From NCBI GenBank assembly GCA_038153405.1, contig JAYOYH010000045.1:1-39458 (forward strand): a stretch of 39,458 nucleotides of DNA, in the 5' to 3' direction. This stretch comes from Gemmatimonadota bacterium. GTDB taxonomy: Bacteria; Latescibacterota; UBA2968; UBA8231. This document shows positions 11,972 to 16,854 of this stretch, piece by piece. A program made the position numbers and the translations under genes. Position 1 is the stretch's first letter. The number at the start of each line of letters is the position of its first letter. The notes under the pieces are model-generated. The model saw only the letters and a list, made by a program, of their open reading frames with translations. It had not been told where the DNA came from and made no database searches.

Positions 11972-12151
11972 TGCATCCCTTTCTCGACGTTCCCGTCCTG
12001 TTCAGTAGAGAGGAGAAGGTAATATATCGGGTGGTAGAGCGTCTCTCAAATCACCTGCGTATCGAAGTAATATGATGGATTGGGTTGACCGCGCATGGAC
12101 TGCGCGTACATTTCCTTGCGTATGTTGGATCTTTTGCGCGAAAGGTATGTT

Positions 12152-12721
12152 ATGATCACAGTAACGGAAGCAGCGGAAAAGAAAATTGCCGAGCTTGTCG
12201 CTAAAAACGACAGGCCGATCAAGGGACTGCGCATTGGAGCGCGTTCGGAGTCGCCGCTCAAAGTGGACTACAAACTGGCCTTTGTATCCGAGGAACAAGT
12301 CGAAGCGTCCGACGAAAGAGTATCCTTTGACGGTTTTGACGTCTTTATGGATCCCGACAGCATCGACCTGCTCGAAGATGCAACCGTCGACTACGTCGAC
12401 GGGCTAATGGGCAGCGGTTTTAAAATCGAACGCCCGCGCAAACTGCCCAAGCATTTAGAAGGCGACCTAGCCCAGCGCGTGCACGAGGTAATTGAAAAGC
12501 AGATTAATCCGGGCGTTGCTGCCCACGGCGGTACAGTAAATCTGGTCGATGTCAAGAATAGCACCGTCTACGTGCAGTTGGGTGGTGGCTGCCAGGGCTG
12601 TGGCATGGCCAGCGTGACGCTTCGCGATGGCGTGGTGCGCATGATTAAGGAAGGCGTGCCAGAGGTAGAAGAGGTTGTCGATGTGACCGATCACGACTCG
12701 GGAGAAAATCCCTACTACTAA
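12152..12721 (+). CDS. nfuA: Fe-S biogenesis protein NfuA-like (degenerate A-type carrier + NifU-C)
   Basis: ITVTEAA start, INPGVAAHGG, GGGCQGCGMA, DVTDH..GENPYY; start at ATG 12152 after AAAGGT. Confidence 0.88.
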   Translation: MITVTEAAEKKIAELVAKNDRPIKGLRIGARSESPLKVDYKLAFVSEEQVEASDERVSFDGFDVFMDPDSIDLLEDATVDYVDGLMGSGFKIERPRKLPKHLEGDLAQRVHEVIEKQINPGVAAHGGTVNLVDVKNSTVYVQLGGGCQGCGMASVTLRDGVVRMIKEGVPEVEEVVDVTDHDSGENPYY

Positions 12722-12741
12722 AGGGCGATTAACAGAGACGG

Positions 12742-12778
12742 AACGGCGCGAGCGCGATCGAGCGTTTCGCGCCGTTTG
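12742..12778 (+). terminator. Hairpin terminator after nfuA
   Basis: AACGGCGCGAGCGC / GCGTTTCGCGCCGTT inverted repeat with a short T run. Confidence 0.65.
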
Positions 12779-12783
12779 CGTTG

Positions 12784-12812
12784 TTGACATCTGGCAGGCG
12801 ATTGCATAACGT
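12784..12812 (+). promoter_or_regulatory. sigma70-type promoter
   Basis: TTGACA (12784-12789), 17 bp spacer, TAACGT (12807-12812); predicted start near 12819. Confidence 0.75.
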
Positions 12813-12832
12813 ACTCTCACAGGCGACAAGAG

Positions 12833-12947
12833 GGCGCCACCAAGTCCGCGGGAAAGGCCGAGCCTACCTCACCTCGCAGCATGCACATAGCAACTTCTTT
12901 CTACCAGTCGAGGGCGGACAGCTGGTGCCATAACGGAAAGAGGTTGT
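12833..12947 (+). promoter_or_regulatory. Structured 5' leader RNA with anti-RBS pseudoknot (riboswitch-like)
   Basis: Helices 12833-39/12923-29, 12844-49/12914-19, 12855-58/12862-65, 12872-76/12909-13; loop 12890-12901 is complementary to the RBS region 12936-12947. Confidence 0.7.
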
Positions 12948-12950
12948 ACG

Positions 12951-13916
12951 ATGGCTGAGACCCTACCTCCAAGGCCCAACCTTGAGCAGCTCAAGAAACA
13001 GGCCAAAGACCTCCAGAAAGAGTACAAAAGCGGCCGCGTAGAAGTCTATGCGCGCATTCGCCTGCACCTGCCGCGCCTGGCGAAAAAGTCCGACGAAGAA
13101 ATGCCCAAAGAGCGCTTTGTGCTGCAGGATGCACAGCACGTCATCGCGCGCCTGTACGGTTTTTCCAATTGGGACATGCTGTGTTCAGCCGTAAAAACGC
13201 CCTTTGCCGCGCTGGTGGATTTTACCGACCGCGAAATCCAGGTTCTACTGCGCCAGGTCGATCAGCGGGACCTCGTCATCGCGCTAAGCGGAGCTGGCAA
13301 AGCGGTGTGCGATAAGATTCTCGGCAATATGTCCGAACGCGTGCGGCAATTCATAAAAGATGAGATAAGCTTTTTGGGACCACTGCGCGACGAGAAGGTT
13401 GACGAGATACAGTATCGCATCGTCAAGCAGTCCGTCCAGCTAGGTGAAAAGGGGCTGGTGGTGTGGCCGCCCAAGCCCTCGAATAGGCGTACGGCCAAGC
13501 AGAAAGAGGCCGACAAGCCCAGCGGTGTCGAGCGCGAAGAGGACGAGGCGCTGCTGCGCCTGGCGCGGAAAACGCTGGGCGAGCTGAGCTACGACGAACT
13601 CCATCAGCTCTTTGTTGGCATGGCCGAAAGGGCGAGAAAGCGGGGGATCTTATCGCTGGAGAGCGTGGGCAACGCAGCGGTCGACCCCTTCATAAAGATG
13701 GCCATTCATCTCGTCGTAGACGGCACCGAACCGGGGTTGATTATGGATATCTTGGAGACGTGGACCAAGTCGCTGATGCACGAGCACGAGCGAAGATATC
13801 AAGATAGGCTACATGAGAACGGAGTGAGATACAGCAAAGTGATTGAAGCGATGATGGCGATGCAGGCTGGCGACAATCCGCGCGTTGTCGAACACAAATT
13901 GTCCGTTATTTATTGA
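12951..13916 (+). CDS. Soluble fusion: N-terminal LPxRPNL helical domain + FliG C-terminal domain + MotA cytoplasmic domain
   Basis: aa 85-172 resemble FliG_C (DREIQVLLRQVD..DLVIAL, NMSER..KDEISFLGPLR); aa 213-321 resemble MotA (ARKRGILSLE, DPFIK..LVVDGTEP..ILE, IEAMMAMQAGDNPRVVEHKL); no TM segment. Confidence 0.82.
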   Translation: MAETLPPRPNLEQLKKQAKDLQKEYKSGRVEVYARIRLHLPRLAKKSDEEMPKERFVLQDAQHVIARLYGFSNWDMLCSAVKTPFAALVDFTDREIQVLLRQVDQRDLVIALSGAGKAVCDKILGNMSERVRQFIKDEISFLGPLRDEKVDEIQYRIVKQSVQLGEKGLVVWPPKPSNRRTAKQKEADKPSGVEREEDEALLRLARKTLGELSYDELHQLFVGMAERARKRGILSLESVGNAAVDPFIKMAIHLVVDGTEPGLIMDILETWTKSLMHEHERRYQDRLHENGVRYSKVIEAMMAMQAGDNPRVVEHKLSVIY

Positions 13917-13950: not shown

Positions 13951-14349
13951 CTACTCTATATCTGGCGGGCTTTGCCGTATGGCATCGATATGCTTTTCTA
14001 GCCGATCCCGTAAATTGCTGAGGGTATCGGTTTTCAACAGGTAGTCATTTGCACCTTGTGCAATGGCTTGGCGGACTATTATCGTATTTGCTTCGCCAGT
14101 AAGGACGACGATCTTGGTTTGCTTAAACTGCGGATTGGCGCGCAGTATCTGCAGTACTTCGATGCCGTCTTTTTTAGGCATGTACAGGTCCAATACGATA
14201 AGTTCGGGTTTAAAGCTCTCACAGTGAGAAATGGTCGTTTCCCCATCTTCCGCTTCCGCTATTTCGCAGTCGAGCTTTTCGAGTATGGCTATGATCTTGC
14301 GTCGACTGATTGTTGCGTCCTCGGCAACAAGCACGCGAGGTTTACTCAT
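13951..14349 (-). CDS. Single-domain response regulator (CheY-like)
   Basis: VLVAED, VLDLYMP, LTG, conserved K; GGAG RBS. Confidence 0.9.
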   Translation of the reverse strand: MSKPRVLVAEDATISRRKIIAILEKLDCEIAEAEDGETTISHCESFKPELIVLDLYMPKKDGIEVLQILRANPQFKQTKIVVLTGEANTIIVRQAIAQGANDYLLKTDTLSNLRDRLEKHIDAIRQSPPDIE

Positions 14350-14529
14350 TGAGCTGCTCCAAGTTGTTATAGAACTGCGCGAGTGCGTTTCGCACGCGCT
14401 TACGCGGTTACCAAGATCGTTGATTTAGCTATTGTATTGTTAATTAATTTCTGCATCGTGCAGGAATTTTATATAGAACGTATCGGCCAGTCAAGGTTTG
14501 TAAACCATTGCCTTTATGTAGGTGAATCA

Positions 14530-16854
14530 ATGCCACGTTCTGCCATCGTCGCATTCCATAAGTCGCAGTTAAACTTCACGCGGGTATACACGGTGTTTGG
14601 GATTGGATTTGGGTTCAGTTTTCCCATTATTGCAACCCTGCTAGACGTCTACATATCCGACTATCCAATGAGTATTCACGGTGCTATAGCAGCACAGCGA
14701 GCTCAACCGCTGCATTGGATTATCAACACAGCGCCCATTTTTCTCGGTTTGGCCTTTGGGATTGCCGGTCGGCGACACCAGCAAATGGCACATACGATAA
14801 ATCAGCTGGAAGAGCGAGAACAAGCACTTCGCAATGCCTCCGTTGCTCTATCTAGAAATAATGCGGTGCTGGTTAAATCAAAGCAGTTGGCGGAAAAAGC
14901 CAATATTGCCAAAAGTGAATTTTTGGCCAATATGAGTCACGAGATTCGCACCCCGATGAACGGTATCATCGGCATGAACGAACTGCTGAAGAACACGCAG
15001 AAGACGCCGCTGCAAACCGAATATGTCAATGCGATCGGTGCGTCGGCCGATGATCTACTCGAGATAATAAATAGCATTCTCGATGTATCGAAGATAGAAG
15101 CGGGCAGGTTCACTCTTGAACATATCGATTTTTCGGTTGGTTCTATCGTGCAGAGCGCGATCCGTCCCATTTCCGTTCGCGCTCACAACAAGGGCTTGGA
15201 ATTGCTCTGCGAAATAGATGGCGATGTACCTCAAATGCTCAAGGGTGACCCCGTGCGCCTCCGCCAATTGTTGATCAACTTGTTGGGCAATGCAATAAAG
15301 TTCACCGAACAGGGCGAAGTGCGTGTGCGCATAGGCGTTGAATCTTCTGACGATGAGGGCATCGTTCTACGCGCTAGTGTGAGCGATACGGGCATCGGCA
15401 TGGCCAAGCAGCAGCAGCAACACATATTCGATGCTTTTTCACAGGCAGATGCATCTACCACCCGGCGTTTTGGTGGCACGGGATTGGGCTTGACCATTTG
15501 CAGCTATATCGTGGATATGATGGACGGTTCCATCTGGGTTGATAGCGAAGAGGGCAAGGGGAGCACATTTCACTTTACGGCGCGTTTTGCAGCGTCAACG
15601 GAGGCGGAAGTCGAGAGTCTGCCATCGCTGGAGTCTTTGCACGGTCTGCGTGTCTTGGTGTTGGACGACAACCTGACAAACCGCAAAATTCTCGATGGTC
15701 TGTTAAGGCGTTGGCATATGGTACCGGTATTGGTTGAATCGGCTATAGAAGGGTTGGATGCCATCGCCAGAGCGAAGGAGCAAGGCAAACCGTTTCAGCT
15801 GATTCTATTAGACGGTATGATGCCCGAAATGAATGGGTTGGACTTTCTGCTGGAACTGCCCGCTTCGCGCGACGTAGTTGCCTCCACGGTTATGATGCTG
15901 TCTTCGGTTGATGATGTAGAATTAGTCCAGCGCGTGCGTGACCGAGGAGTGCGAGTGTACCTGCGCAAGCCCGTTTTACACGCAGATCTACTGGATGCCA
16001 TTTTTTCGATCATAGGGTCTGATTCCTCGTTGGTAGATCCGCTGGCGGCGGCTAGCATTGAGCACTTCGATCTATTGGGTAAACGCATCTTGCTGGTAGA
16101 GGATAACGCAATCAACCAAAAAGTTGCGCTGGGTTTACTCGCAGAGACGAACTGCACCTGCCAAACCGCTGCCAACGGAGAGGAAGCAGTCCAGCGCGTG
16201 CGGGAAGAACCTTTTGACTTGGTTCTCATGGACTTGCAAATGCCGGTGATGGGAGGAATAGAAGCGACGCAGCGCATTCGCGCGTTGGAAGCATCGCAGG
16301 AAAAACATGTGCCCATCGTCGGCTTGACCGCCAATGCGATGCAAGGCACGCGCGAGCAGTGTCTGGCTGCGGGTATGGACGAATACTTGGCCAAGCCGAT
16401 TAAGCGTGCGTCTTTGCATAGACTATTGGGGCAGTTTTTCGATGCCGAATCCCCGGTGTTAGAAGAGGTCAGCGCACCGGCAGATACCGACGCGCAGTCG
16501 CTGGCAATCCTCGACGAAGAGACCTTGGACGAGCTCCATACGTTGGACGCACCGGGCGGCTTTTCGCTGCGCGAGGTCATGGAGCTATTTATCGACGAGT
16601 CGGACCATTTTGTCGAAGAGATGCGCCAGCTGTTGGCCGATAAACAGGGACCCGAATTGCAGCGCTCGGCACACACCTTTAAAGCCAACGGTCGCGATCT
16701 GGGGGCTCAGCGTTTGGCCGCCTTGTGTCAGCAGATTGAAGACCGGGGTCGCGAAGGTCAGTTCGATGGAATCGACGCCCTGATTGACGAAGCCGAACGC
16801 GAGGCCGCGCTCGTCTGCGATGCACTCAAACAGCACAAATACATGGACTCGTGA
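14530..16854 (+). CDS. Hybrid sensor histidine kinase (2 TM, HisKA, HATPase, REC, REC, Hpt)
   Basis: [37 protein letters not shown], two REC domains, RSAHTFK Hpt; start at ATG 14530 is uncertain. Confidence 0.92.

Follow-up and report, generated by a model that had tools for sequence, protein, structure and literature searches.

A structured leader RNA that accompanies an N-terminal protein module in front of unrelated C-terminal domains

Introduction

Does a gene from a Gemmatimonadota bacterium (Latescibacterota in the GTDB lineage) begin with a portable unit of leader RNA and protein module, and if it does, what might the RNA do? The gene, an open reading frame (ORF) of 321 amino acids (aa), lies in a stretch of 39,458 nucleotides (nt) that we refer to as the window (contig JAYOYH010000045.1 of assembly GCA_038153405.1, positions 1 to 39,458). 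A preliminary description of the locus had proposed that residues 1-82 form a basic helical module unrelated to the FliG- and MotA-like parts of the protein, that the module and similar leaders recur in front of other proteins, and that the module binds its own leader. The linkage of the RNA to the module is shown here by comparison of genomes: the leader and the first ~80 residues are one evolutionary unit. Covariation shows that the leader has a six-helix fold in which the ribosome-binding site is hidden in one helix, P4. That the module binds the leader and represses translation as feedback is a reading to which we would give a little less than an even chance, and it is weighed below against the alternatives.

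Results

A leader RNA in front of the module gene

The GUCCGC...GCGGAC pair of the preliminary description was located upstream of the gene, with GUCCGCGGGAA at 12844-12854 and GCGGAC at 12914-12919. Taken by itself the sequence is unremarkable. The 11-mer GTCCGCGGGAA occurs at chance level, with two matches (at most one mismatch) in the window against 1.38 expected, and single-sequence folding of the leader is no better than that of shuffles (z -0.15 and +0.30), with the P4-P5 hairpin alone showing. The significance of the leader comes from comparative data.

The same genome holds a second copy of the leader on another contig (C59), with a mean column identity of 77% to the window copy. A 26-nt degenerate pattern drawn from these two copies gave 27 matches in 15 of 41 related genomes and none when read backwards; two of the 27 (L008 and L009) lie in coding-looking DNA without the rest of the motif. 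A covariance model, R1, was built on 24 aligned leaders and has 135 positions and 23 pairs, ending with the start codon and one further base. At E <=1e-3 it gave ~196 matches in 60 of 151 genomes of the phylum, full-length in all 150 matches listed, and the highest copy number seen in one genome was 16. The window contains exactly one match (99.5 bits, E 2e-25). The start codon directly after the leader is ATG, GTG or TTG in 150 of 152 R1 matches.

Rfam 15 did not match the leader in the window at E <=10, and nothing in the entire window reached a gathering score. Among eight diverse loci searched at E <=1, no leader was matched and the sole match was a chance one to a microRNA model on the opposite strand. 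A search of the literature for such a leader, or for a tie between a leader and the module, found nothing relevant. Contigs from RNA libraries (two runs of one study) cover 12857-13015 and 12868-13017 without differences and bridge the junction of leader and ORF, which is a weak hint of co-transcription, as such contigs may contain DNA and show no ends, giving no transcript start. No cover was seen in these contigs for 12735-12856.

The chance-level 11-mer and the unexceptional folding energy would both suit an element that is not an RNA, such as a DNA-level repeat, a recombination site or a chance similarity. We consider this very improbable. The place of the element, with a promoter-like pair on one side and the start codon on the other, is fixed, the reversed pattern has no matches, none of 19 control loci (described below) has the leader, and the compensatory changes and strand-specific G-U pairs, also described below, speak for RNA. 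The RNA-library contigs across 12857-13017 point the same way as a weak hint only.

The leader and the module are kept together

The hidden Markov model of the module was built from library cluster representatives and the window module, not from leader-associated loci. Among the examined loci, 141 of 152 R1 matches (one of the 152 being a truncated duplicate) are followed by the module, which lies in the first ORF after the leader in 123 and further downstream or in a shifted frame in 18 more. These 18 comprise five in which the module lies behind a 64-96-aa ORF consisting only of FliG_C, seven in which it lies behind a 336-339-aa ORF without a family and six frameshifts or other starts. The module is lacking behind 11 of the 152, one of which is the truncated duplicate match. 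In the opposite direction, the leader precedes 34 of the 40 module genes present in five genomes (5/5, 4/8, 5/6, 16/17 and 4/4), and 34 of the 36 leaders in the same genomes precede a module. The highest number of module genes seen in one genome is 17.

Beyond the phylum, loci were also chosen by the peptide LKKQAKDL, searched for as a degenerate DNA pattern, which lies ~45 nt inside the ORF and outside the RNA model. This gave at least 120 stretches, and of the 80 examined with their DNA, 61 encode the module and 19 do not and served as controls. An R1 match lies just upstream in 60 of the 61 module loci (E 9e-29 to 3e-5) and the 61st has no upstream DNA, so that the leader is present at all 60 testable loci. 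None of the 19 control stretches had an R1 match better than E 0.39.

Record titles of loci with both leader and module name about a dozen phyla, an approximate count as the labels of metagenome-assembled genomes (MAGs) are the submitters' own and may be wrong. Among the names in these titles are Bradyrhizobium, Variovorax, Acidovorax, Paraburkholderia, Dokdonella, Hyphomicrobium, Nisaea, Labedaea and Fimbriimonas, and there are MAGs labelled Verrucomicrobiota, Acidobacteriota, Gemmatimonadota, Armatimonadota, Planctomycetota, Chloroflexi, Myxococcales, Fibrobacterota and others. In Burkholderia cenocepacia and Methylosinus sp. C49 the R1 match ends three bases into an ORF made of the N-terminal module and ankyrin repeats. 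The Methylosinus ORF is annotated as a 555-aa hypothetical protein, and the Burkholderia stretch is unannotated.

Across the phylum, presence and absence of leader and module agree in 142 of 151 genomes, with both in 57, neither in 85, the RNA only in three (G023, G122 and G139) and the module only in six (G002, G133, G088, G124, G129 and G137). No leader was thus found in the 85 genomes free of the module. Joint gain and loss is seen even within genera, the leader and the module each being present in 12 of 22 genomes of genus g14 and in one of five of genus g13. In one of the discordant genomes, G122, a 21-aa stub follows one of the two leaders, and behind the other is a 354-aa protein in which only the first residues of the module are retained. 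The expectation of the preliminary description, that the RNA motif would follow the domain across genomes, was thus borne out, and we did not find the lack of tracking that would have spoken against it.

Several loci show leaders in other states or arrangements. Decayed leaders were seen in L311 (1180-1262), where the part from the 3' strand of helix P2 to the Shine-Dalgarno sequence is left ahead of an intact orthologue of the window protein, in L306 (341-389), where the P4-P5 half is retained, and in L014, where the 5' half is retained with no gene behind it. The second copy in the window's own genome (L002, contig C59, 1084-2277) is followed by a 96-aa FliG_C-only ORF that slightly overlaps the next ORF, of 290 aa, which consists of two tandem N-terminal modules and another FliG_C; this operon layout is repeated in at least four other genomes (L064, L067, L097 and L141). 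In L133, L134, L136, L154, L158, L159 and L160 the leader is followed by the 336-339-aa ORF and the module gene comes only after it. This ORF starts with MQRY(P/S)RIHPAA and has a hydrophobic stretch; the one copy checked matched no NCBIfam family. No other non-module gene recurs under the leader.

Joint inheritance could in principle come about without any contact between leader and module. The leader may be read by another trans-acting protein, by a small RNA or by a physical signal such as temperature, and stay with the module mainly via duplication and recombination downstream of the module. On this account the remnant leaders are ordinary decay by descent, the near-identical conserved nucleotides of paralogous leaders in a genome are as expected of one common regulator. 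The P4-P5 hairpin, moreover, hides the ribosome-binding site on its own and forms in the single-sequence fold. Descent alone, however, leaves the joint retention and loss within genera g14 and g13 unexplained, and the pairing of leader and module is maintained although the module is fused to at least 12 Pfam families. We regard a reader of this other kind as improbable.

The association is independent of the C-terminal domain

The genes under the leader share the N-terminal module only. Behind leader and module, at least 12 different Pfam families are found at the C-termini, including ankyrin repeats, FliG_C, FliM, sigma-54 AAA+ activators, nucleases and kinases. Among 122 leader-associated ORFs the C-terminus is Ank in 33, FliG_C in 17, FliM in seven, Sigma54_activat and PcfJ in five each, BFN_dom and Clp_N in four each, APH in three, and a methyltransferase, AhpC, Glyoxalase and PhyH in one each, while 40 of the 122 have no Pfam family there. 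The earlier claim that the module caps ankyrin-repeat and other unrelated proteins behind similar leaders is therefore confirmed.

Thirty loci encoding homologues of the FliG_C/MotA part of the window protein were also examined. Seven have the module, with the leader in six and a remnant of it in one. The leader is found at E <=0.1 in none of the other 23, which include versions of 225-263 aa missing just the module. A leader tracking FliG_C rather than the module is ruled out by these 23 loci, and the C-terminal domains are interchangeable, as had been suggested.

In four loci (L039, L090, L093 and L152, and also L047, which is cut short) the module stands before a sigma-54 AAA+ core, in the usual position of a receiver or sensor domain. 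These ORFs are 338-345 aa long and end after the AAA+ lid, and a DNA-binding domain was not detected in them.

The leader has a conserved fold that covers the ribosome-binding site

The structure was measured over 34 pairs on alignment A7, which comprises 58 leaders drawn from a diverse set of public records. Of the cells at these pairs 91.3% are paired against 78.1% in shuffles, with none of 500 shuffles reaching the observed value, and the covariation score is 0.429 against 0.190. Both sides vary, as compensatory change, at 30 of the 34 pairs. When the partners are slid by 1-3 columns, pairing falls to 39-47%. G-U pairs are frequent in P4 and P5 (UG in 38 of the 58 rows at one pair) and are compatible with the sense strand only. 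Nucleotides that are unpaired are nearly invariant.

At the 5' end (helix coordinates in Table 1), the P1 hairpin holds the 5' strand of a second helix, PKa, in its loop, adjoining the P1 3' strand, and P1 and PKa therefore form a classical H-type pseudoknot. P1 lies outside the search model and is misaligned in places; counted without the alignment, 51 of 58 leaders have an uninterrupted run of at least four pairs directly next to PKa, compared with 29% of shuffles. PKa is paired in 96.9% of cells with changes on both sides at four of four pairs, and the hairpin P3 in 99.1%, also with compensatory changes at four of four. A linker of variable length (20-62 nt) separates this subdomain from the second, which consists of P4 (92.5% paired; eight of nine pairs compensatory) and P5 (87.7%; both-side changes at six of six). 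The two subdomains are joined by the long-range helix P2, to which the alignment was not fitted, since P2 is absent from the search model. P2 is paired in 99.7% of cells and five of its six pairs are compensatory, for example GUCUGC/GCAGAC, ACCCGC/GCGGGU and GUGUGC/GCACAC. Its 3' strand lies in the loop of P5, with 3-8 nt before and a median of 2 nt after it, so that P2 either makes a second pseudoknot or forms in place of P5.

The Shine-Dalgarno sequence (GGAAAGAGG at 12935-12943 in the window, GCACGGAGG in proteobacterial copies) is part of the 3' strand of P4, which carries GGAG(G) and ends 2-8 nt (median 6) ahead of the start codon. Since the conserved fold hides the ribosome-binding site, the leader would act on translation initiation, and since all six helices covary, the closed form would be a selected state. 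This step from fold to function is one that we infer. Like a riboswitch, the leader is a covarying structured 5' untranslated region (5' UTR) with a platform, P4 and P2, that couples the fold to the ribosome-binding site. A simple RNA thermometer of the ROSE or fourU type, by contrast, would not need the 5' pseudoknot domain and P2, which covary strongly beside the Shine-Dalgarno hairpin, and no Rfam thermometer family matches the leader.

A strict promoter and terminator scan of 12650-13000 called nothing. Under a looser rule, 126 of 210 leader rows have a sigma-70-like -35/-10 pair in front of them, compared with 5.9% of shuffles. For 124 of these, the end of the -10 element falls somewhere from 1 nt inside the model to 8 nt ahead of its start. 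In the window the -10 element is poor, with three of six consensus matches. From this position the transcript would start a few bases before P1, which would place P1 at the extreme 5' end. A sigma-54 promoter at 12792-12806 was set aside, as its spacing departs from the consensus by one base. Neither CsrA-type GGA sites nor a proline stall at LPxxP was retained as an idea, there being just two conserved prolines, which are not adjacent.

The N-terminal module

The module has the consensus MxxxLPxxPxLxxLKKQAKxLL ... LxDAQxVxAREYGFxxWxxL. A search of the full library with aa 1-82 gave 2588 cluster representatives at E <=1e-3, of which 334 reach E <=1e-10, and the match starts inside the first 20 residues in 141 of 150 among the matches listed. 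Some proteins have two or three copies in tandem, and some leader-bearing copies lack the middle helices.

Pfam, NCBIfam and PADLOC have no family for the module. The sole Pfam match on the window module is to Glyoxalase_8 (PF20066), below the cut-off (12.2 bits against 23.7, E 0.19). Two relatives gave E 3e-4 to 5e-4 with this profile, and scores overall were 12.2-21.2 bits, below the cut-off. It is the first ~55-62 positions of the profile that align weakly with the module, and Glyoxalase_8 probably includes a copy of the module ahead of its glyoxalase-like domain; the window protein has no glyoxalase part. A search of the ESM Atlas with the module found unnamed clusters only (score 0.92), and a word-indexed search for longer proteins gave 72 matches, few of them named.

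An AlphaFold2 model of the module has five helices with a mean predicted local distance difference test (pLDDT) score of 83.9. The basic character of the module is mild: its median isoelectric point (pI) is 8.4, compared with 5.07 for the remainder of these proteins, and the net charge over the first 30 residues averages +3. This is weakly compatible with RNA binding.

The window protein and its neighbourhood

FliG_C (PF01706) matches the window protein at aa 85-169 above the gathering cut-off (74 bits against 23.3, E 1.4e-20), and aa ~210-290 align to the cytoplasmic loop of MotA, PomA and MotP in NCBIfam. The FliG_C match in Pfam leaves out aa 1-82, and the module is distinct from these parts, as had been proposed. 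The soluble protein thus has in one chain (aa 83-321) a FliG C-terminal (torque-helix) domain and a MotA/PomA/MotP-loop-like stretch; in the flagellar motor, these two surfaces come into contact. Related genomes encode 225-263-aa homologues without the N-terminal module. FliG-like ORFs of ~350 aa are numerous in genomes of the family (for example at loci G150, G123, G021 and G015), with up to 11 matches per genome and four in the window's own genome, whereas a standard flagellar motor has a single FliG.

The gene upstream (12095-12721) looks by eye like an NfuA/NifU-type iron-sulfur protein, with the end ...GGGCQGCGMASVTL... It is followed by a GC-rich hairpin (12738-12778) without a T run that the strict terminator scan did not call. 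Directly downstream, judged by eye from the translations, are a response-regulator-like single-domain ORF (13951-14349, minus strand) and a large hybrid histidine-kinase-like ORF (14383-16854, plus strand).

Table 1. Features of the leader and of the ORF that it precedes, in window coordinates.
Feature	Position	Strand	Details
Promoter-like pair	12784..12812	+	TTGACA 12784-12789, 17-nt spacer, TAACGT 12807-12812
Entire leader RNA, 5' UTR of ORF 12951..13916	12819..12950	+	~133 nt; R1 match 12819-12954
P1 hairpin	12822..12838	+	GGCG 12822-12825 with CGCC 12835-12838; loop holds PKa 5' strand
PKa pseudoknot helix	12830..12870	+	GAGG 12830-12833 with CCUC 12867-12870
P2 long-range helix	12844..12919	+	GUCCGC 12844-12849 with GCGGAC 12914-12919 (in P5 loop)
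P3 hairpin	12855..12865	+	AGGC 12855-12858 with GCCU 12862-12865, loop CGA
P4	12892..12945	+	AACUUCUUUC 12892-12901 with GAAAGAGGUU 12936-12945
P5	12902..12927	+	UACCAG 12902-12907 with CUGGUG 12922-12927
ORF	12951..13916	+	321 aa, starts MAETLPPRPNLEQLKKQAKDL
N-terminal module	12951..13196	+	aa 1-82 of ORF 12951..13916
Remainder of ORF, interchangeable part	13197..13916	+	FliG_C aa 85-169; MotA/PomA cytoplasmic-loop-like aa ~210-290

Discussion

How might the leader work? In the mechanism we propose, the RNA folds into the P1/PKa pseudoknot with the P3 hairpin inside it, the variable linker and then the long P4-P5 hairpin covering the Shine-Dalgarno sequence, with P2 tying the P5 loop back to the 5' domain. 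The module of the window protein and of its paralogues would bind the folded leader and stabilise the closed P2/P4/P5 state, so repressing translation. Each module-bearing protein would then limit its own synthesis and that of the other module proteins. The start of the transcript, the direction of regulation and the module as effector are parts of this scheme that we infer. The module is favoured as effector because it is the only feature common to the regulated genes, because no leader was found in module-free genomes and because leader and module are gained and lost together even within genera. Two further observations point to it, the higher pI and the six module genes without a full leader in the five genomes, of which one retains the 3' half of the leader and five have a degenerate KKQAK.

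Several observations weigh against feedback by the module. No likeness to an RNA-binding fold was found for it, the best Foldseek hit against the PDB having an E of 6.3 and the best in a wide VIA-align search a Z of 3.5, and in sequence searches of the PDB, with a single sequence and with a profile, no match was better than E 0.19; these negatives are still compatible with binding. The module is also just mildly positive, the net charge being zero or less in 39% of modules. Six of the 40 module genes lack a full leader, and the degenerate KKQAK in such genes may just reflect overall divergence. In 12 of 152 cases the leader precedes another ORF, the 64-96-aa FliG_C-only or the 336-339-aa one, and the module gene comes second. 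Finally, a double-pseudoknot RNA with near-invariant unpaired nucleotides in many phyla is more typical of metabolite riboswitches, and protein-binding leaders are usually narrower in their range.

This last consideration leads to an orphan riboswitch. Here a small molecule or ion would sit in a pocket that P1, PKa and P3 make together with the invariant joining nucleotides, and would set the contact between P2 and the P5 loop, opening or closing the Shine-Dalgarno helix P4; the module proteins would be the sole regulon since the module works with, or senses, the same ligand. The anatomy is explained equally well in this way as by protein binding. The transcript seems to start at P1, the RNA has two pseudoknots with nearly invariant unpaired nucleotides, the 20-62-nt linker separates two subdomains, the expression platform includes the ribosome-binding site and the RNA is kept across the dozen or so phyla of the record titles. 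The module, moreover, stands in the usual position of a sensory domain before the sigma-54 AAA+ core and FliM. Set against this are the 141 of 152 matches that precede a module and the 85 module-free genomes in which no leader was found. To our knowledge, what unites the regulon of a known riboswitch is a pathway or transporter rather than a single protein domain attached to unrelated enzymes. The platform that sequesters the Shine-Dalgarno sequence is identical in all phyla, whereas riboswitch platforms usually differ between phyla, and no Rfam riboswitch class matches the leader. A riboswitch would seem rather unlikely on balance, but it is the strongest of the alternatives to feedback by the module.

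Returning to recognition by the module, a stronger form is that leader and module together make a self-contained portable cassette, in which the module would be an RNA-binding domain of a new kind, specific for its own double-pseudoknot leader. Any domain placed behind the module would then become translationally self-limiting, and all carriers in a cell would form one cross-regulated pool. We put this reading forward tentatively, at somewhere around one chance in three.

The nearest known kinds of system are the autogenous leaders of RNA-binding proteins and orphan riboswitches. Autogenous translational operators are found in the leaders of the L10, S15, thrS, rne and pnp genes. As there, a structured 5' leader lies over the ribosome-binding site, overlapping the region of translation initiation, occurs only with the gene of the binder (here a proposed one) and is kept or lost jointly with it. 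Those leaders differ in having known RNA binders, one gene family per leader and a limited range of taxa, whereas here the putative binder is an 80-residue module of unassigned fold in front of at least 12 unrelated families, with up to 16 leader copies per genome and about a dozen phyla. With orphan riboswitch candidates that accompany a single gene family (yjdF motif) and with two-subdomain pseudoknotted riboswitches such as ZTP (pfl motif) the leader shares a 5'-terminal pseudoknotted, aptamer-like fold, two subdomains with a variable linker and a long-range helix, and a sequestered ribosome-binding site. It differs from them in that its regulon is defined by a protein domain and not by a pathway, and it has no Rfam match. 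The antiterminators BglG, SacY and LicT likewise have an N-terminal domain of ~55-80 residues (CAT) that targets a leader structure, the ribonucleic antiterminator (RAT), a role that is putative for the module. They work at the terminators in sugar operons, and PRD domains are present in all of them, while here the C-terminus is free to vary, the target would be the gene's own ribosome-binding region, and no likeness in sequence or fold was found. What is new is that the RNA is tied to a protein domain, that the C-termini are interchangeable and that one genome can have many copies; we know of no described parallel for an RNA tied exclusively to one module irrespective of its fusion partner.

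If the RNA is confirmed, it would represent a class of bacterial cis-regulatory RNA that is both new and widespread, and its occurrence in the cultured genera Bradyrhizobium, Variovorax, Acidovorax, Methylosinus and Burkholderia makes it testable at the bench. Were the feedback to hold, a new RNA-binding domain and a portable feedback operator would have been found; were the leader a riboswitch, its ligand would reveal the function of an unnamed module with at least 2588 sequence clusters. A cassette would be a plug-in reused before motor-switch parts, ankyrin repeats, AAA+ activators, nucleases and kinases. For the phylum, the unit of leader and module offers a handle on its soluble FliG_C/MotA-like and FliM-like proteins and its receiver-less sigma-54 activators.

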